The notes below the pieces were generated by a model. That model was not told the origin of the DNA. It ran no database searches and saw nothing but the letters and a program-made list of their open reading frames with translations. Shown in pieces: positions 231 through 6,457 of a stretch of DNA of 6,457 nt (the stretch's first letter is position 1; each line of letters begins with the position of its first letter). The stretch is from a virus. Its lineage: Duplodnaviria > Heunggongvirae > Uroviricota > Caudoviricetes. The translations under genes were made by a program, and so were the position numbers. Location: the IMG/VR virus record IMGVR_UViG_2563366830_000009. One strand, 5' to 3'.

Positions 231-743
231 CTATGCAGGCTTTTTGGATTTGTACGAATAATCCCACGGATAAACATTTCTACTAAGTGGAGCTGTATTC
301 GTTCGTTCATGAAATAATTTTGTGAAATTCAATACGGAATCCATCCAAACTTTTGCGTTAGCTTTGGTGTGTGCGGGCGGGTCCCAATAAGCTAGTAAGG
401 CTGCATCTCTTATTTCATTGACTGCATATATGAGATATGCGTTACTGGTTGGTTTTGGCCTGTAATTTCCTTGTTCATCAATCAATCCATATGACCACTC
501 ATCCCAACACTGTTCAGTACATGAGTATGAATATGATGCATATTCACCAATATTGACATGAACCTTTCTGAGATGGAAGCCTAATACTTCGTCTGGTCTT
601 TCAAAAAGAGTATCTTTTCCCAGATCAGGATGATGACCATGACGCCAGTGTTGTTTAAAAGCATCTTTTAGCGAAATCAGAAAGTCATCAGTTTTAAACT
701 CACCAGTAGGTATAACCTTCCCGCTATACTCACTCAAAAACAT
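231..743 (-). CDS. YafO-family-like type II toxin (170 aa), putative ribosome-dependent mRNA interferase
   Basis: Good RBS on minus strand (AAGGAAGAGG about 6 nt before ATG at 743). Start overlaps the upstream ORF stop by 14 nt (730-743). Segments LFERPDEVLGFHLRKVHV and TSNAYLIYAVNEIRDAALLAYWDPPAH resemble my recollection of E. coli YafO (FERVAHIHL... and TNDEAHLVYCQG...WLLIAILKPEPH); not search-verified. Confidence 0.5.
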   Translation of the reverse strand: MFLSEYSGKVIPTGEFKTDDFLISLKDAFKQHWRHGHHPDLGKDTLFERPDEVLGFHLRKVHVNIGEYASYSYSCTEQCWDEWSYGLIDEQGNYRPKPTSNAYLIYAVNEIRDAALLAYWDPPAHTKANAKVWMDSVLNFTKLFHERTNTAPLSRNVYPWDYSYKSKKPA

Positions 744-1056
744 CGAATTCCTCTTCCTTCATATGCGTTTCTAATGAGTTAAGCTGGCGGAAAGATATCT
801 CTTTTGATTCTGCAGATGAGAGCTTTTTTATCCGCTTGATATTCTTTGTGATAGGAATAGACATTGTATGCACATCAGCGGATGCTCTTGGCTTTGTGCT
901 GATAAAAATATGGCGCAATGCCGCATTTTCACTATTGAACGAGCCAATAGCTGATTTACGTGCTACAACCTTACCAGTAAAAATACGACTCTTGCTACGC
1001 TTTGCATGAGTTCCGCTTCTTACCGGACCTCTCATCACGAATCCAAGTTTTGTCAT
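730..1056 (-). CDS. Hypothetical basic protein (108 aa), first gene of the module; candidate antitoxin or autoregulator, not YafN/Phd-like
   Basis: Strong RBS (GGAGA, 6-nt spacing) before ATG at 1056. Translationally coupled to the YafO-like ORF. Operator palindrome at 1099-1113 lies about 45 nt upstream. Very basic N-terminal half (GTHAKRSKSRIFTGKVVARKS). Confidence 0.5.
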   Translation of the reverse strand: MTKLGFVMRGPVRSGTHAKRSKSRIFTGKVVARKSAIGSFNSENAALRHIFISTKPRASADVHTMSIPITKNIKRIKKLSSAESKEISFRQLNSLETHMKEEEFDVFE

Positions 1057-1098: not shown

Positions 1099-1113
1099 TT
1101 ACCTTTAAGGTAA
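1099..1113. promoter_or_regulatory. Operator-like perfect palindrome TTACCTTTAAGGTAA (site 1), overlapping a -10-like hexamer of a minus-strand promoter
   Basis: Minus strand reads TTGCAG(1141-1136)-17 nt-TACTAT(1118-1113) running into the palindrome. The identical 16-mer TTACCTTTAAGGTAAT recurs at 3921-3936. Confidence 0.55.
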
Positions 1114-1156
1114 TAGTACGCTATTCACCCCCGGTCTGCAATCTGTACAGAATTAT

Positions 1157-1324
1157 TTAAAGGCACATCCCTGTGCCGCCGCCCGGGCGGGAATCCGCAG
1201 AACGCCCACCGCAGCGTGAGCCGTCAGCAGCAGTGTCGCTGTCGTGCTGACAACGACCGGCAAAGGCCTGAGTTGACGCTACCAGAGACAACAAAACGAA
1301 CAGTGCAGCAAATGCTTTTTTCAT
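1157..1324 (-). CDS. Short ORF (55 aa) with a canonical Sec-type signal peptide (MKKAFAALFVLLSLVASTQAFA) and a Cys/Gly/Arg-rich tail; could be a small secreted peptide, a truncated gene 5' end, or a non-coding leader
   Basis: ATG at 1324-1322, stop at 1159-1157. The N-terminus has textbook n/h/c signal-peptide organisation, but the C-terminal 30 codons are read through GC-rich palindromes and there is no SD. An identical N-terminal coding segment in copy 1 (from ATG 149-147) runs off the left edge. Confidence 0.25.
   Translation of the reverse strand: MKKAFAALFVLLSLVASTQAFAGRCQHDSDTAADGSRCGGRSADSRPGGGTGMCL
1162..1177. other. Junction hairpin GGCACATCCCTGTGCC (6-bp stem, 4-nt loop) followed on the minus strand by a T/A-rich tract; module-boundary motif, possible weak terminator
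   Basis: The 24-bp motif aGGCACATCCnTGTGCCGCCGC recurs at 2315-2338 immediately after the 244-aa gene stop. Flanking promoter regions (ATAATT...TTGCAG) are also homologous. Confidence 0.4.
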
Positions 1325-1399
1325 TGTGACATTTCCATCTATAAGCCACCTCAATGTGGTGTCAATGAGTGTAGCACTGACTTTTGTTTCGTCCACAAA
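1176..1399. repeat. Direct repeat copy 2, about 99 percent identical to 1-224
   Basis: Same alignment as copy 1. Left boundary falls inside the hairpin motif GGCACATCCCTGTGCC (1162-1177); right boundary is the A-run before the terminator at 1403-1417. Confidence 0.9.
1338..1365 (-). promoter_or_regulatory. Sigma70-like promoter inside repeat copy 2 (-35 TTGACA consensus, 16-nt spacer, -10 TATAGA)
   Basis: Minus strand reads cactcaTTGACAccacattgaggtggctTATAGAtggaaatgtcacaATG. Perfect -35 and 4/6 -10; the ATG follows about 15 nt later with no clear Shine-Dalgarno. Confidence 0.45.
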
Positions 1400-1425
1400 A
1401 AAGCCCGCAGCGCGGGCTTACTTTT
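1397..1425. terminator. Rho-independent, bidirectional-type terminator (GCCCGC-AGC-GCGGGC flanked by an A-run and a T-rich run), terminating the minus-strand 182-aa gene
   Basis: Perfect 6-bp GC stem at 1403-1408/1412-1417. On the minus strand it is followed by TTTTTT (complement of 1397-1402) directly after the stop codon at 1418-1420. Confidence 0.7.
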
Positions 1426-1966
1426 CTTCAGGTTTGTTGTCTTCAGATTTCTTCTTGATGCTTGGTTTTTGTCTAAGAACGAAAATACCAGCCACTGCAA
1501 CAACTGTACCGATCACTGTGCCAGCTAGAACTTCATGACCTGTTAAACCTAATAATGTTGCACAAGCTACTGTAAAAATAGTTGCACTCAGGCCAAACCA
1601 CTGCCCACGTTTATCTCTATTAATAGCCCCGTCAAGTGCCTTTTCCTCCATTTTCTGGCGGTGAGCAAACTCCTTCTCCGTCAGCTGGAAGATGCGTTCG
1701 GGGGCATCAGGTAAAATATCCTGATACCCGCGAAGCAGATAGGGGGGAGGAAGCGGACCCTGAAACGCATGGTGAGCGACAACTATCTCCTGAATTTCAG
1801 GGCGATCAAGAACTCTTGTGAAGGCATCTGGGTGTTGAATGATCTCGTTACTTAGCCCTTCCTCAACTTCCTCGAACTCAGTTTCTTCGTTATCACTTGG
1901 TTGCCCAATAGATTTTTGCATATTTGTCGAAGGACATTCCTTTAGCTTCTGGTTTTCCTCTTGCAT
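1418..1966 (-). CDS. DUF2335 (COG5346)-like membrane protein, 182 aa, acidic N-terminal region and two C-terminal TM helices
   Basis: Motif PLPPPYLLRGYQDILPDAPERIFQLTEKEFAHRQ...RGQWFG then two hydrophobic helices matches my recollection of the DUF2335 family (unverified). The true start may be the internal Met at 1921; the long ORF overlaps the upstream gene by 74 nt. Confidence 0.55.
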   Translation of the reverse strand: MQEENQKLKECPSTNMQKSIGQPSDNEETEFEEVEEGLSNEIIQHPDAFTRVLDRPEIQEIVVAHHAFQGPLPPPYLLRGYQDILPDAPERIFQLTEKEFAHRQKMEEKALDGAINRDKRGQWFGLSATIFTVACATLLGLTGHEVLAGTVIGTVVAVAGIFVLRQKPSIKKKSEDNKPEEK

Positions 1967-2219
1967 TTGAGTTTTTCCCTGTCACTATTGCCCATTTTCC
2001 GCCAGCAGGCGCTGCAATTTTTTTTCCGTTCTTTACTATATATTCAGCATAAACACGATTTTCTGACCGTCTGAGATCGTCTCCGACCATATTCATGTCT
2101 CTTGATATAACTTTGACGACAGAGTCTCGGTTTAAAGCCTTGGCATAGTTGGAGCCAGGAACGATACCCAAAGGGGTGCCAGACTCTATAGCCAGCTCCT
2201 TGACATATCTTCTGCTCAT
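1893..2219 (-). CDS. Hypothetical protein, about 108 aa (MSRRYVKELAIESG...), first gene of the second module
   Basis: The track ORF begins with TTG at 2234, but the ATG at 2219-2217 is preceded by GAGGT (4-nt spacing). Operator-like site 2 lies 22 nt upstream. Overlaps or couples with the DUF2335-like gene. Confidence 0.5.
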   Translation of the reverse strand: MSRRYVKELAIESGTPLGIVPGSNYAKALNRDSVVKVISRDMNMVGDDLRRSENRVYAEYIVKNGKKIAAPAGGKWAIVTGKNSNARGKPEAKGMSFDKYAKIYWATK

Positions 2220-2240
2220 ATGAACCTCAACCAATCGACT

Positions 2241-2255
2241 TTACCAATCGGGTAA
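2241..2255. promoter_or_regulatory. Operator-like site 2, TTACCAATCGGGTAA (same TTACC-N5-GGTAA half-sites), overlapping a -10-like TAAAAT on the minus strand
   Basis: Same half-site and spacing as sites 1, 3 and 4. The surrounding region is homologous to the region upstream of the 108-aa gene (shared ATAATT...ACA...TTGCAG). Confidence 0.45.
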
Positions 2256-2316
2256 TTTTAAACATGAGTATAATGCTTTTAACTGCAACGAGTGTAAACA
2301 ATTATTGATAATTGTA

Positions 2317-2332
2317 GGCACATCCATGTGCC
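2317..2332. other. Junction hairpin GGCACATCCATGTGCC immediately after the ORF6N gene stop; second copy of the module-boundary motif, possible weak terminator
   Basis: 22 of 24 bases match 1160-1183. The stop codon of the 244-aa gene is at 2341-2343. Confidence 0.4.
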
Positions 2333-2340
2333 GCCGCTCG

Positions 2341-3060
2341 TCAGAAGAACCCTGCCTTGTCGTTGATGTACTCCGCGTGGGTCTGGATATCACGCAGGCA
2401 TTTGCTCACACCGACGATGTAGCAGAACATGGTGGTCAGCTCCGCCGCCGCGCCCGATACGTCATGCCCGTCTTCCTGTAACTGGTTCAGCAAATTCATC
2501 AGCAGTGAGTTCTCCGTCAGGCCGAGAACACCAGACGGCGAGTGAATCAGGCTGCGGTAGCCGGGCTTCAGTGGGGCGCTGTATTCTTTTTTGTCTTCCA
2601 GCTTGATCGCCTCCATAATGGCGGGCATGAATTTTTCAATTACCTGAGTGGCCTTTGATAAATCAGCTCCACCTGAGAGACGAACATCTCCACTGACATT
2701 TGCGGGTTTTCTGTCGAAGTAGCAATCTTCCAGTTTTTCGAAGACCTCCCACGCTTTTTCAGTCTCAAGAATTTTCGCATGTCGTGCTGCACCGCGAGCG
2801 GTCCATAAGAAAAGATGACTTACTTTTGGTGCAATATTAAGCAAACCTCTTTGAGAGGACTCGTTCTTAAATGCTCGTAATTCTTCGCCTATCAGCTTGA
2901 AACAATGTTTTCCCTCAATGAATCGATCTGCATTTCGTTGATAGTTTTGACGAATCAGTTTGGGTTCTGTGTCATACAAATCAGCAAGCATTTCTGTAGT
3001 CATTACAGGGATGTTGCAATGAGTTGTTATCGGCAACTTATCAATAGCTATATTACGCAT
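2341..3060 (-). CDS. ORF6N-domain (KilA-N superfamily) protein, often annotated as phage antirepressor-like; N-terminal ORF6N domain plus an uncharacterised C-terminal domain of about 130 aa
   Basis: N-terminal region (VMTTEMLADLYDTEPKLIRQNYQRNADRFIEGKHCFKLIGEE...LWTARGAARHAKILETEKA) fits the ORF6N consensus as I recall it (VMLD-DLA-LY...RN-RFP-F-L-EE). The track start is 3075, but GGAGG with 8-nt spacing favours ATG at 3060-3058. That start overlaps the upstream gene stop (3053-3055) in the sequence ATGCGTAA. Confidence 0.6.
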   Translation of the reverse strand: MRNIAIDKLPITTHCNIPVMTTEMLADLYDTEPKLIRQNYQRNADRFIEGKHCFKLIGEELRAFKNESSQRGLLNIAPKVSHLFLWTARGAARHAKILETEKAWEVFEKLEDCYFDRKPANVSGDVRLSGGADLSKATQVIEKFMPAIMEAIKLEDKKEYSAPLKPGYRSLIHSPSGVLGLTENSLLMNLLNQLQEDGHDVSGAAAELTTMFCYIVGVSKCLRDIQTHAEYINDKAGFF

Positions 3061-3559
3061 TTTCATTGCCTCCATCTTTCACGACGAAATAGCAATTATC
3101 TTTATAATCTAACTGGATGAACTTTATGTTTTCAGGGAGTTTTACAGAAAGAGTTTTTGCACAAGCAAAACCAAAATCTGCGCCAGAAGCATCCATATAC
3201 CTTAATAATTGTTTTAATGCTGAAGGAGAAAAAGTATCTACCTTCACCTCAACAGGGTAACCATCTTTTGTTTTTAGGTCTGGTTGACCTGGTCCACCAA
3301 GTATTTCAGCGTTAAGGTATTTTGCTATTTCTGGATAAGCGTTGTATTCAGAGCGTAGTTTTGCCTTGTTATCGACTGCTAGTTGCATAAGATGATCAAA
3401 CAAATTGGTATCTAAATCTGCCCCTTCATCCCACATTCTATTTCTACAGCTAATCAATTCACTGACCAGTGGTGCACTTTCTTGCCTTAGCATAAGAAGG
3501 AGTGGAGAATTAGAAATTAACCAATACAGATCGTCGTTTGAGATTTTTTGGCCTGGCAT
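3053..3559 (-). CDS. Hypothetical protein (168 aa), AT-rich, translationally coupled to the ORF6N gene
   Basis: RBS GAGGT about 7 nt before ATG at 3559. Overlaps the downstream gene by 8 nt. No recognisable domain by eye. Confidence 0.5.
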   Translation of the reverse strand: MPGQKISNDDLYWLISNSPLLLMLRQESAPLVSELISCRNRMWDEGADLDTNLFDHLMQLAVDNKAKLRSEYNAYPEIAKYLNAEILGGPGQPDLKTKDGYPVEVKVDTFSPSALKQLLRYMDASGADFGFACAKTLSVKLPENIKFIQLDYKDNCYFVVKDGGNENA

Positions 3560-3835
3560 AGCGATACCTCTACTAGTAAGTTACCTACCACCGCAACGCC
3601 AATTGCTGGTGGTGAACTGGACAAGGTTGGCGTACCGGCCTAGTAGGTACCGGCGCACCTTTCGGTGCCCCTGCCCAGCCCACCATAATTCGGATATGAC
3701 TGTGCTATACGCATAAAAAAACCACGTCTGGCGTGGTATGCGCCTACTAGTAATCCGGGACGCCAATCCCGGCACTGGATTTTGCCAGTGCCCGATTACT
3801 ATGGCACAAGAGGAGTGCGATGTAAATTTACCGAA
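3560..3835 (-). ncRNA. Candidate structured RNA: either an sRNA of about 120 nt (roughly 3835 to 3714) or a long attenuator-type 5' leader of the 168-aa/ORF6N operon
   Basis: Multiple nested stem-loops are visible: an outer stem AGTAATC/GATTACT (3748-3754 with 3794-3800) enclosing hairpins CCGGGA-CGCCAA-TCCCGG and CACTGG-ATTTTG-CCAGTG; GCACC-TTTC-GGTGC; ACCACC...GGTGGT. A promoter with overlapping operator sits upstream and the terminator is at 3714-3737. No ATG-initiated ORF in this minus-strand stretch. Confidence 0.3.
3714..3737 (-). terminator. Intrinsic terminator-like hairpin on the minus strand (ACCACG-CCAGA-CGTGGT followed by U6-7) inside the long region upstream of the 168-aa gene
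   Basis: Plus strand shows aaaaaaACCACGtctggCGTGGT; on the minus strand the 6-bp stem is followed by a T-run. It lies about 155 nt upstream of the 168-aa start codon. Confidence 0.5.
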
Positions 3836-3871
3836 AAGGTAATGATAAACGCTAAGAAATATTAAAATCAA
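3828..3871 (-). promoter_or_regulatory. Minus-strand promoter (-35 TTGATT 3871-3866, 18-nt spacer, -10 TATCAT 3847-3842) overlapping operator-like site 3, TTACCGAAAAGGTAA (3828-3842)
   Basis: Minus strand reads TTGATTttaatatttcttagcgttTATCATTACCTTTTCGGTAA. The arrangement of a -10 hexamer running into the TTACC half-site is the same as at site 1 (TACTATTACC). Confidence 0.4.
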
Positions 3872-3920
3872 CCATATTTGGTTGATTGCGTTTAACGCTT
3901 GATCACCTGAAAGCAAGATA

Positions 3921-3935
3921 TTACCTTTAAGGTAA
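3921..3935. promoter_or_regulatory. Operator-like site 4, TTACCTTTAAGGTAA, identical to site 1 and 21 nt upstream of the 175-aa gene start
   Basis: Perfect palindrome; the 16-mer TTACCTTTAAGGTAAT matches 1099-1114. It is followed by tgtGAGGAaaagcaATG (RBS and start at 3956). Confidence 0.5.
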
Positions 3936-3955: not shown

Positions 3956-4483
3956 ATGGAAGTTTTCTTAATCATCGTCGGCATCGTGATTATTAATTTT
4001 GTTTTTTTATTTATTGCAAAAAAACAAAAAAGTAACGATATGCATGTTTCTACAACTGATGATCTTACCTTTGTAGAGCATGCACTGAATGTATCAGGAT
4101 ATAAACTCACTCCATACGGAGCTGGTGTATCACTCATGTCTTTAAGTAACGGTTTTTCAAAAGAAGAAACATTTTCACATATAGCTTTGATGGCTCTTTC
4201 TCAACACGCCAAAGTCGCAGGTAGTGACGCAATTGAGCTTAGTAAAGTTAGCATTCGTGCGATGTCGATAGCTGAAAACTTAACTAAATTATTCAGGAAA
4301 GGTCTTATTCGATCAGAAATATATAAAAATGATTTGAATGCTATCATGGCTGTCAGCACAATTAATGAAAACCAAGAGGATTGGATTTCCATAGTTCTGG
4401 AAAGCAATAGCACATCTAACAAGGATACTATTGCTTTGCCGATAAGTGCAGAAGCTTCTTTAGAAGCCATAAACAGCCATTGA
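3956..4483 (+). CDS. Hypothetical single-pass membrane protein (175 aa), AT-rich; N-terminal TM helix then a soluble domain
   Basis: RBS GAGGA 8 nt before ATG. The N-terminus MEVFLIIVGIVIINFVFLFIAKKQK is a clear TM segment with a positive patch after it. Only plus-strand gene in the window; convergent with the 618-aa gene. Confidence 0.5.
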   Translation: MEVFLIIVGIVIINFVFLFIAKKQKSNDMHVSTTDDLTFVEHALNVSGYKLTPYGAGVSLMSLSNGFSKEETFSHIALMALSQHAKVAGSDAIELSKVSIRAMSIAENLTKLFRKGLIRSEIYKNDLNAIMAVSTINENQEDWISIVLESNSTSNKDTIALPISAEASLEAINSH

Positions 4484-4504: not shown

Positions 4505-6361
4505 TTAACGCATCACCGGATCCACCTGGTTTATTAGTGGCGCAATCCAGAACAGGTTATTGCCGGGGATCGTAGTTCGTACATTATGTACAATACGATC
4601 ACCGACATCACCATTCAACACACCAGAGGTCACATCAATGATGCTGTCCGCAAGACTGAATGACGGGCCGAACAAAGAACTCACAAAGCCACGGCTGGCA
4701 TAGCGTGACTGTGTGCCGGTGCCAAATAAAGCCCCCAGCCCAACAGCACCACCAGTAGCCTTTTCAGCCATGTTGTTATATTCCATCAATGGCCCAAGAA
4801 TACCGGATCTATCTATACCCTCAAGCACCAGCTTCTCTGGTGACCAGTCAACATCCTTCCCTTTCGATGCTTCTTTAAGCGCATAGACCAGTGAGCCAAG
4901 AGCAATCTGAAATGCAGTGCCATAATAAAACTGCGCAGTTCCTTCCTGTAACCCACCAAGTAGCGCACGGTTGTATGAAGCCGTTGTGAATGATTTAAAC
5001 TGAAATATCGTTCGCCCCCATGACGTACTCGCCCATAAAGGTGTGTCACCAATACCGGGGGTGATGATAGTGTTATTAACGTCTTTCAGAACCGCTGACT
5101 GGAATACTCCGGCAACGTACTGATCGTCCCATTTATCAAAGTTACCAATGTGCCATCCATCAATTACCTCACCATGTTTCTCGAACTCACTGCGAATACG
5201 CGCAGCCATATTGTCGTTGATACCGAGTTTTGCCAGGCGGCGTGCAGGAAATGCACCGGACAAAATACCGTCTGAAATAACCATTCCGTTCATGGATTTG
5301 TTTATGTCATTAAAGCGATCCATGAGTGTCAGCTTGCCGAAGGCATCAGTAATTCGCTCCATTCCGGCTTCGACTGCTGTTGTCCTGGAAGAGCTGTCAA
5401 CAAGATCACCAATTGCACGAGAGCGTGAATGCAGTACAGTTTCCAGTCCGATACCCATCTTCAACATCTCTTCTTTGCTGGCCTTAAATGCCGGTGATTG
5501 GGATATCTGAGAAGCATAGCCTTTCATGGTGTTACGGAAACCATTAACCATAACCCCTCTGGCCAGATCTGGAATAGCTGATACTGTCATTCCACCGAGT
5601 TTGGTCGTGAAGTTCACATCCCGCAGAAAAGCGCCAGCACGAACAAAAAACGAAGACGGATCATCAGGCATCCCATATGTACCAACAAGACGATCGCGTA
5701 ATGCTGTTATGTCTCTGAGATCATTTGCTCTTGATTTTGAAAGTCTGGACTGTTCTTTCCGTAATTCCTTTTCGTACTTTCGCATTAATGAATCGAGTTT
5801 ACCCTGAGGAACAACTTCACCATTGCTCTCATAACGTGCTTTCAGATTTGCCACACTTTCGTCATATTTCGCCTTTATTTTTTCAGGCACTTCCCGTAAC
5901 AGACTGTCATATTCGTCCTCAATTAATTGCAGACGCTCAGTCATAGTTCGTTTGCCAAATGTTCTCGTCAACTCAATTTCTGCTGCCGCTTCACGGATAT
6001 GACGTTGCAGCACGTAATTCACATCACTTTCAAGATAATCCCTGATAAGACTATCAGGAACATTTAATGTTCTTTCTTTCGTACTACCTGCGGCTTTTAC
6101 AGAAAATACGCTGACAAAATCCTGTGGAACCTTAGCACCAGTAATTTTATTAATTACGATATCTGCTGCAATTTCAGCATCCTCAGGAACCAGTGTTTTA
6201 TTTCCTCTCGACCACCAGTCAACCAAAATACGTCGAAATTTATCGCGTTCACTGATTATTTTTCCAACTTTATATATGCGTGGGAAATAGCTTGCCTGGC
6301 CTAATGCTTTCAGTTCTTCATCTGGCGGCAATAAACCAAGCTTTTGCATTTCAACTTTCAC
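4505..6361 (-). CDS. Large hypothetical protein (618 aa as tracked), charged/coiled-coil-like middle and Gly-rich hydrophobic C-terminal segment; possibly a phage virion or injection/tape-measure-like protein; 5' end abuts an IS element
   Basis: Long uninterrupted ORF. The tracked start at 6361 is GTG; the first ATG is at 6349-6347, with weak SD for both. The reading frame stays open upstream into the IS end at 6378 and to the window edge. No Walker A or HExxH motif seen. The family guess is weak. Confidence 0.6.
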   Translation of the reverse strand: MKVEMQKLGLLPPDEELKALGQASYFPRIYKVGKIISERDKFRRILVDWWSRGNKTLVPEDAEIAADIVINKITGAKVPQDFVSVFSVKAAGSTKERTLNVPDSLIRDYLESDVNYVLQRHIREAAAEIELTRTFGKRTMTERLQLIEDEYDSLLREVPEKIKAKYDESVANLKARYESNGEVVPQGKLDSLMRKYEKELRKEQSRLSKSRANDLRDITALRDRLVGTYGMPDDPSSFFVRAGAFLRDVNFTTKLGGMTVSAIPDLARGVMVNGFRNTMKGYASQISQSPAFKASKEEMLKMGIGLETVLHSRSRAIGDLVDSSSRTTAVEAGMERITDAFGKLTLMDRFNDINKSMNGMVISDGILSGAFPARRLAKLGINDNMAARIRSEFEKHGEVIDGWHIGNFDKWDDQYVAGVFQSAVLKDVNNTIITPGIGDTPLWASTSWGRTIFQFKSFTTASYNRALLGGLQEGTAQFYYGTAFQIALGSLVYALKEASKGKDVDWSPEKLVLEGIDRSGILGPLMEYNNMAEKATGGAVGLGALFGTGTQSRYASRGFVSSLFGPSFSLADSIIDVTSGVLNGDVGDRIVHNVRTTIPGNNLFWIAPLINQVDPVMR

Positions 6362-6377
6362 CCGATTTAATACAGTT

Positions 6378-6457
6378 TGAACCGCCCCGGGAATCCTGGA
6401 GACTAAACTTCCTGAGAAAGAGGTAAACAGGATGACTAAAAATACTCGTTTTTCCCC
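6378..6457 (+). mobile_element. Left end of an IS3-family insertion sequence (IS629/IS1203-like): terminal inverted repeat starting TGAACCGCCCCGGG plus the first codons of orfA (MTKNTRFS from ATG 6432)
   Basis: The sequence TGAACCGCCCCGGGAATCCTGGAGACTAAACTTCCTGAGAAAGAGGTAAACAGGATGACTAAAAATACTCG matches my memory of the IS629-type left end and OrfA N-terminus (MTKNTRFSPEVRQRA...). The element continues beyond the window. Confidence 0.65.

Follow-up and report, generated by a model that had tools for sequence, protein, structure and literature searches.

The stretch of DNA analysed here (the window; 6,457 nt, IMG/VR virus record IMGVR_UViG_2563366830_000009) is identical to positions 1400184–1406640 of the Escherichia coli MS 196-1 chromosome, and window coordinates refer to its full length. 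It corresponds to the accessory/immI region of a prophage of about 36 kb that resembles epsilon15 and phiV10, is integrated at the 3′ end of guaA and is assigned by its gene order and proteins to the epsilon15/phiV10 group, genus Uetakevirus. The window holds a YafO-like module, a DUF2335 module, an operon with isrK and C4 RNAs ahead of a predicted antirepressor gene, and a divergent 175-aa gene, and it contains four copies of the palindrome TTACC-N5-GGTAA (TTACCNNNNNGGTAA). We put the probability at roughly 0.85 that these palindromes are operators of Rep, the master lysogeny repressor of the Uetakeviruses. They are new, uncharacterised instances of an operator system that is already known. 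Supporting this are the sites themselves, their spread through the phage and its family, their fixed register with promoters, and the homology of Rep, Ant and C4 to characterised counterparts.

An exact pattern search returned exactly four perfect matches in the window. Site 1 (1099–1113, TTACCTTTAAGGTAA) lies 42 nt 5′ of the 108-aa gene that heads the YafO-like module, and site 2 (2241–2255, TTACCAATCGGGTAA) lies 21 nt 5′ of a second 108-aa gene, which heads the DUF2335 module. Site 3 (3828–3842, TTACCGAAAAGGTAA) stands at the head of the isrK–C4–antirepressor operon, and site 4 (3921–3935) lies 20 nt 5′ of the 175-aa gene. Sites 1 and 4 carry the same 15-mer, TTACCTTTAAGGTAA, which at site 4 is lengthened to a complete 17-bp palindrome, ATTACCTTTAAGGTAAT. 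Sites 3 and 4 form a pair 93 bp apart, and sites 1 and 2 each stand alone; no further site with two or fewer mismatches was found in the window, including degenerate partners such as one 62 bp 5′ of sites 1 and 2. In 200 shuffles of the window that preserved its dinucleotides, no match arose. An earlier annotation made from the letters of the window (the sequence-only reading) had described four copies at these coordinates, an identical 15-mer at the first and last of them, the same gene contexts (108-aa/YafO-like, 108-aa/DUF2335, RNAs with 168-aa/ORF6N, and 175-aa) and a frequency far above chance, and each of these points was borne out.

The motif is not confined to an island of about 3 kb. 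Within the 46-kb MS 196-1 locus around the window (L001; coordinates so labelled refer to this locus), we found 13 exact and three one-mismatch sites against 0.72 expected per 46 kb. All of the exact sites fall in the prophage part (34.6 kb, with 13 exact and two one-mismatch sites), and a similar density across the host was not seen: 60.5 kb of flanking host DNA, the part of the chromosome sampled as a control, contained no exact site. The region between the cro-like gene and rep has a one-mismatch site (L001 41509) and an exact site (L001 41557). A pair at L001 42269/42331 brackets a TTGACA-16/17-(T)AATTAT promoter just 3′ of rep, and a second pair at L001 39171/39233 brackets a TTGATT-17-TTTAAT promoter before a DUF1064 gene. 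Further sites are located at terS (L001 36085/36103), 5′ of the head genes (L001 32896) and on both sides of the small ant gene (L001 18562 and 18942). As annotated, the terS open reading frames (ORFs) of phiV10 (L002 41–715) and MS 196-1 start 5′ of the operator pair; comparison with epsilon15 places the true start probably at an ATG about 20 nt 3′ of the operators.

We compared six genomes, namely this prophage, phiV10, epsilon15, Tyrion (Enterobacter), TL-2011b and BUCT711 (Klebsiella). In an unbiased census of 5-Nk-5 palindromes, TTACC-N5 ranked first in all six, with 8–13 copies each (8–11 in each of the five other than this prophage), and it was not found in the host control by the same census. 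Syntenic sites are present in phiV10, epsilon15, Tyrion, TL-2011b and BUCT711, and across phages of four host genera the half-sites are constant while the 5-nt spacers vary. The RefSeq record of epsilon15 contains seven features labelled "protein_bind: repressor / lysogeny", all seven of which read (A)TTACC-N5-GGTAA(T); the site type is thus already known. A search of the full-text literature for the operator sequence found nothing relevant. A consensus, ATTACCWDWWNGGTAAT, reportedly given in the epsilon15 paper, did not serve as evidence; the annotated GenBank features were taken in its place.

These distributions bear on whether the palindromes have a function at all. Their positions near module boundaries and the two identical 15-mers might be expected of chance occurrences or of remnants without function, such as short hairpins or scars left by recombination where cassettes join. 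Against this stand the shuffles, the 13 prophage copies with none in 60.5 kb of host DNA, half-sites that are kept while spacers vary, and the fixed promoter register described below, and a stem of 5 bp is not strong enough for a stable hairpin in either RNA or DNA; the probability of this explanation is negligible. A reading of the palindrome as an RNA hairpin was likewise set aside, since the stem has no more than 5 bp and a transcript starting within the operator would lack the 5′ arm.

Operators at the early promoters are paired at a distance of 62 bp, start to start, in each of the six genomes, apart from one BUCT711 pair at 63 bp, and a 93-bp pair like that of sites 3 and 4 is also present in TL-2011b (34385/34478). 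Both distances are multiples of 31 bp, roughly whole helical turns. The spacing is a hint of cooperative binding and not a demonstration of it; the 62-bp pairs fit one tetramer holding two sites.

The best candidate for the binding protein is encoded about 17.7 kb from the window, beside a divergent cro-like gene. Rep (WP_000836293.1, L001 41627–42211) is a 194-aa protein with two helix-turn-helix motifs (HTH) that is 99.5% identical to phiV10 gp40 and ZX5 ORF21, is 43% identical to epsilon15 gp38, and matches the crystallised Rep of SPC32H (PDB 5D50_A) with an E value of 3.5e-42. The Reps of the compared phages are 43–78% identical overall, and the N-terminal HTH motif NLVNRW is invariant among them, which fits the sharing of half-sites by phages of four host genera. 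That the same half-sites occur in Salmonella, Enterobacter, Klebsiella and Escherichia phages despite Reps of such divergence also bears on heteroimmunity, for which the spacer or Ant–Rep pairing would be candidate sources of specificity. Overexpression of ZX5 ORF21 blocked the lytic cycle, abolished free phage and lowered holin and endolysin transcripts by more than 99.9% (PMC9782041). A later paper, citing the structural work, describes the SPC32H Rep as binding palindromic DNA as a tetramer, which is taken apart by a tetrameric Ant (PMC9638917). The proposal of a single dimeric repressor acting on four units stands in one respect, since one repressor very probably acts on all four, and needs correction in the other, since the SPC32H homolog is reported there to bind as a tetramer.

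Each of the five other phages (epsilon15, phiV10, Tyrion, TL-2011b and BUCT711) has Rep, the Cro-like protein and the small Ant, and this pattern separates the candidates. The sequence-only reading had named the small proteins of the locus (108-aa, 113/108-aa and 168-aa) as possible binders. Each module would then be autoregulated by one of the 108-aa proteins (p108a and p108b) or by the 168-aa protein (p168). Each 108-aa gene does lie immediately 3′ of a site, and type II toxin–antitoxin antitoxins commonly autoregulate their own promoters. No homologs of p108a, p168 or the 175-aa protein (p175) were found in the five other phages, however, and p108b has one in BUCT711 only, although epsilon15, phiV10, Tyrion and BUCT711 carry 8–11 copies of the motif; it is because they are absent from other motif-carrying phages that the local proteins are unlikely binders. 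The two 108-aa proteins, moreover, fall in separate PHROG families and gave no hit to a DNA-binding domain, and most sites are far from the window genes, at rep/cro, terS and the replication genes. We rejected the local proteins on their distribution and on the lack of DNA-binding domains found, and consider binding of the palindrome by one of them very improbable.

The same comparison is less discriminating for the Cro-like early protein (WP_001282459.1, 76 aa, L001 41242–41472), which as the main binder would damp early and accessory transcription during lytic growth. Its gene occurs in all of the motif-carrying phages compared and adjoins the OR-type sites, and CI and Cro of lambda share operators. 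Against its being the main binder, the epsilon15 record gives the sites to the repressor, a tetrameric Rep (as reported in PMC9638917) fits the recurrent 62-bp pairs, and overexpression of the ZX5 repressor alone shuts down lytic genes (PMC9782041). Binding by the Cro-like protein would in any case complement binding by Rep and not exclude it, and we regard a mainly Cro-like occupancy as possible but rather doubtful.

The arrangement of the sites relative to promoters is consistent with control by Rep. On the minus strand the junctions read TACTAT-TACC at site 1, TAAAAT-TACC at site 2 and TATCAT-TACC at site 3, the final T of each hexamer doubling as the first T of TTACC. The sequence-only reading had pointed to a −10-like hexamer fused to the site in three cases, correctly, and had seen in this a layout for repressor occlusion, a view that gains support from the same register at the canonical early promoters of the prophage; site 4 lacks a hexamer in that register. 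Promoter matches were scored out of 12 against sigma70, with the register set by a shared T, which closes the −10 and opens TTACC. Among the operator flanks of the six genomes, 14 of 119 had a match of at least 9/12 in this one exact register, where the background is 0.05% per position and rises to 0.5% if only sequences ending in ...AT are counted. Among these 14 are window sites 2 and 3 and, in every one of the six phages, the PL-type promoter (TTGACA/TTGACT-17-AATTAT, GATTAT or AATCAT), and the register persists across differing promoter sequences.

At site 1, the putative promoter of the YafO-like module (1114–1142, minus strand; TTGCAG-17-TACTAT, 7/12) was read from the sequence, the last T of its −10 being base 1113; its junction TACTAT-TACC recurs at the terS-proximal operator of phiV10, Tyrion and TL-2011b. 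At site 2, the promoter scan and the register test gave a putative promoter of the DUF2335 module (2255–2282, minus strand; TTAAAA-16-TAAAAT, 9/12), with an alternative at 2298–2270 (minus strand; TTTACA-17-CATTAT). The promoter scan also identified an upstream promoter-like element at site 3 (3842–3871, minus strand; TTGATT-18-TATCAT), whose −10 abuts the operator. In the register of sites 1–3 the 15-bp operator starts at the last base of the −10 and is hence centred on about +1, where bound Rep would block RNA polymerase.

Site 3 heads the operon with the RNAs. Between it and the 168-aa ORF, Rfam identified an isrK-like RNA (3715–3791, minus strand; RF01394, 68.1 bits, gathering score 50), which overlaps the C4 targets a1/b1 (3752–3804; RF03163, 45.1 bits, just under the gathering score of 46.7), and a C4 antisense RNA of the P1 immI type (3605–3690, minus strand; RF01695, E 3e-14, 76.7 bits with a gathering score of 45). 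What had been called a structured RNA is indeed one, and from these matches it is a gate of the P1-immI/Gifsy-1 type before the antirepressor operon. PGAP places a frameshifted "Rha family phage regulatory protein" pseudogene at 3605–3701; because this stretch coincides with the C4 RNA (76.7 bits), the call is probably an artefact. The RNAs are followed by the gene of a 168-aa protein (3053–3559, minus strand; phrog_18738, function unknown, no Pfam hit) and by a predicted ORF6N-Ant antirepressor gene (2341–3075, minus strand), the product of which has an N-terminal ORF6N domain and matches PF10543 (E 1e-18), phrog_1760 ("anti-repressor") and, on residues 161–242, phrog_450.

The C-terminal domain of the ORF6N protein is 42% identical over 74 aa to the small Ant of the prophage (L001 18653–18910), which in turn matches chain E of PDB 5D50 with an E value of 4e-47. 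Just 5′ of small ant is a near-consensus LexA box, CTGTATAAACATACAG (L001 18616–18631), with a Rep operator 40 bp further 5′, and epsilon15 has the same LexA box beside its site at 19896. The Ant of SPC32H is reportedly LexA-controlled, in agreement with this box. The prophage contains two convergent operator–isrK–C4–antirepressor cassettes, one in the window (2341–3842, ORF6N) and one at L001 18942–19916 (BRO-N); the distance from the operator to the 5′ end of isrK is 36 nt in both, and the BRO-N and ORF6N proteins share a near-identical C-terminal Ant domain. From this small-Ant-like C-terminus, both proteins are predicted to be large antirepressors aimed at Rep, and Rep would guard their promoter, so that derepression would be self-reinforcing.

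An operator stands 5′ of every isrK/C4 cassette examined (L001 18942, phiV10 20497, Tyrion 21393, TL-2011b 34385, and the other E. coli prophage loci L008 and L009). The register at the cassette promoters is kept while their sequences differ, with TTGCAA-17/TTTGCA-18-TATATT in the second cassette and in phiV10, TTGTAA-17-TATTAT in Tyrion and TTGATT-18-TATCAT in TL-2011b. In the window the promoter scan gave, in addition, a second promoter-like element closer to isrK (3798–3826, minus strand; TTTACA-17-CATAGT, preceded by TGc as in an extended −10), which would start transcription exactly at the 5′ end of isrK as set by the start of the Rfam model (3791). P1 immI has a similar pair, with one repressor-controlled and one constitutive promoter. 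In Gifsy-1, the 5′ end of isrK is a mapped promoter start, and the isrK promoter yields both a small RNA and a translationally silent read-through mRNA of the antirepressor (PMC4825925).

This second element introduces an alternative role for Rep at site 3, which ends 1 nt 5′ of its TTTACA −35 and, relative to the isrK promoter, is centred near −44. Rep might also, or instead, activate the isrK promoter, boosting isrK/C4 and so blocking translation of the antirepressor as well as its transcription. The model would be lambda CI, which activates at PRM, and the other prophage cassette shares the layout of operator and isrK. In phiV10, however, operator and isrK stand 3 nt closer together and no −35 is left, so the activation geometry is not conserved, whereas the conserved feature is the upstream promoter with the operator at about +1. 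We therefore rate activation as improbable and keep repression by Rep as the preferred account of site 3.

At site 4 no promoter fits the family register. A candidate weak promoter there, TTGATC-17-TACCTT, likewise read from the letters, would overlap the operator, and the site may repress the divergent 175-aa gene, cooperate with site 3, or do both. Between sites 3 and 4 there is a 9-bp inverted repeat, AATCAACCA-AATA-TGGTTGATT (3866–3887), which contains the TTGATT −35 and was flagged on the minus strand in the terminator scan; it may insulate the antirepressor operon or bind another protein.

Taken together, in a lysogen Rep would probably sit, by homology to SPC32H as a tetramer, on each (A)TTACC-N5-GGTAA(T) and would silence four units, namely the YafO-like module, the DUF2335 module, the 175-aa gene and the isrK/C4-gated antirepressor operon. 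DNA damage would lead to expression of the LexA-controlled small Ant, Rep would be inactivated and all four units would be released; the ORF6N-Ant fusion protein would then titrate more Rep, closing a positive feedback.

Several points weigh against this account. The promoter of site 1 has a weak −35, and site 4, as noted, stands outside the register. The P values for the register are inflated and independence is overstated because the compared genomes are related. The repressor-site annotation of epsilon15 may itself be a bioinformatic prediction, and the Cro-like protein, which co-occurs with the motif equally well, could be the binder as well or instead. The position of site 3 near −44 of the isrK promoter is compatible with activation too. 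Physical binding by Rep, the transcription starts, repression as the direction of control and the feedback loop are what we infer from the observed sites and homologies. Finally, two IS3-family elements have inserted in the prophage, and it may be partly decayed: one (L001 26432–27645, the end of which forms the right end of the window, from about 6370 to 6457) truncates an internal virion protein gene at 4505–6385, and the other (L001 13561–14789) splits a holin gene. Particle production by the prophage is probably defective, while its immunity region is intact.

The genes under sites 1, 2 and 4 are accessory. In module 1, the first gene encodes p108a (730–1056, minus strand; phrog_5933, function unknown) and overlaps the downstream toxin-like gene, which encodes a 170-aa YafO-like protein (231–743, minus strand; phrog_1651) that PGAP names "YafO family toxin". 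The match of the latter to Pfam PF13957 (E 9.5e-4, 19.7 bits) is under the 25-bit cut-off. The 108-aa protein is possibly an antitoxin; no YafN-like antitoxin with a DNA-binding domain was found upstream, and p108a had no significant Pfam or NCBIfam hit. PADLOC and NCBIfam returned no hits for the module proteins, the YafO-like protein included, and known defence systems were rejected for want of a PADLOC hit. Module 2 begins with the gene of p108b (1893–2219, minus strand; phrog_10654, function unknown), which is 50% identical to its BUCT711 homolog, and continues with that of a DUF2335 membrane protein (1418–1966, minus strand, 182 aa as listed; PF10097, E 1.6e-15; phrog_3996, "membrane protein"). 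The 175-aa protein (3956–4483, plus strand; phrog_21690, function unknown) has an N-terminal hydrophobic helix.

The two modules behave as alternative cassettes. In E. coli MLI109 the ORF6N operon is followed by the 108-aa/YafO-like module with the same operator as site 1, in E. coli TUM9975 it is followed by the 108-aa/DUF2335 module with the same operator as site 2, and MS 196-1 has both in tandem (231–2255). BUCT711 has a homologous DUF2335 module with its own operator and a TTGACG-16-TAAGAT promoter. A 227-bp direct repeat (1–227 and 1176–1402, 99% identical) flanks the YafO-like module and separates the two modules. Each copy contains a 53–55-aa signal-peptide ORF (MKKAFAALFVLLSLVASTQAFA...; phrog_14503, "membrane associated protein", "moron") that has a promoter-like element of the TTGACA type to itself and lacks a Rep operator, and the second copy is preceded by a strong bidirectional terminator (1401–1419). 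The flanking repeats suggest that the YafO-like module was inserted or duplicated by recombination between the moron copies. A hairpin, GGCACATCC(C/A)TGTGCC followed by GCCGC, occurs at 1162–1177 and 2318–2333, at the 3′ end of the upstream unit before each module promoter, and may be a cassette junction or a weak terminator.

Among characterised switches, the closest is that of epsilon15/SPC32H-type Uetakeviruses (PDB 5D50/5D4Z), with which the present system shares the half-sites and their spacing, a homologous Rep, a small Ant and a LexA box before ant, as well as sites in syntenic positions at rep/cro, PL, the replication genes, terS and ant. It differs from epsilon15 in that the window sites lie in an expanded region with YafO-like and DUF2335 modules, a second isrK/C4 cassette and the 175-aa gene; Rep here is only 43% identical to that of epsilon15/SPC32H, and binding by a phiV10-type Rep is a prediction. 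In P1, the master repressor C1 has dispersed operators, including Op51 at the immI operon (c4-icd-ant). Both systems thus have one master repressor with many scattered single operators controlling accessory and immunity functions, and in both a master-repressor operator stands before an antirepressor operon that a processed C4 antisense RNA gates; the 168-aa gene sits where icd sits in P1. Operators of P1 are asymmetric 17-mers and C1 is unrelated to Rep, in contrast to the perfectly palindromic operator and two-HTH Rep found here, and the present system has an additional isrK-like terminator RNA. Like the isrK–orf45–anrP operon of Salmonella Gifsy-1, the window has an isrK RNA, then a processed C4-like RNA and then an antirepressor gene; unlike it, the phage background is another, the Ant domain is that of Uetakevirus, and the TTACC-N5-GGTAA operator is not reported for Gifsy-1. 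The divergent rep/cro genes with clustered operators between them, and a second set at the leftward early promoter, resemble OR and OL of lambda CI/Cro, and the paired sites suggest cooperative binding as in lambda; unlike in lambda, operator pairs bracket a promoter at 62-bp spacing and many operators lie outside the immunity region. The Rep homolog is also reported to be inactivated by an antirepressor and not, as in lambda, by RecA-mediated cleavage.

The assignment of the four palindromes, and of nine more in the prophage, to a known repressor is useful for annotation, and it links the P1-type C4/isrK RNA gate and antirepressors with a fused Ant domain to the Rep–Ant switch of the SPC32H type. 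It also supplies a rule for predicting Rep-controlled promoters in Uetakevirus prophages of Enterobacteriaceae, namely (A)TTACC-N5-GGTAA(T) with an abutting −10 hexamer. The Rep regulon probably takes in both accessory modules (YafO-like and DUF2335) and the 175-aa gene, which would then not be lysogenic-conversion genes expressed on their own. A broader and more tentative view is that each swappable cassette at this hot spot (YafO-like, DUF2335, 175-aa and the large antirepressors) brings its own Rep operator in the +1 register and would be induction-coupled cargo and not a moron, with Rep perhaps acting positively at isrK in a two-layer lock and the cassettes being movable between phages. 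This arrangement predicts induction-coupled expression: if it is true, the cargo fires only when Rep is inactivated, and its expression is tied to induction rather than to lysogeny. As the half-sites are common to the Uetakeviruses of Escherichia, Salmonella, Klebsiella and Enterobacter even at a Rep identity of 43–45%, such cassettes could then move between phages and be wired into the switch of a new phage at once.

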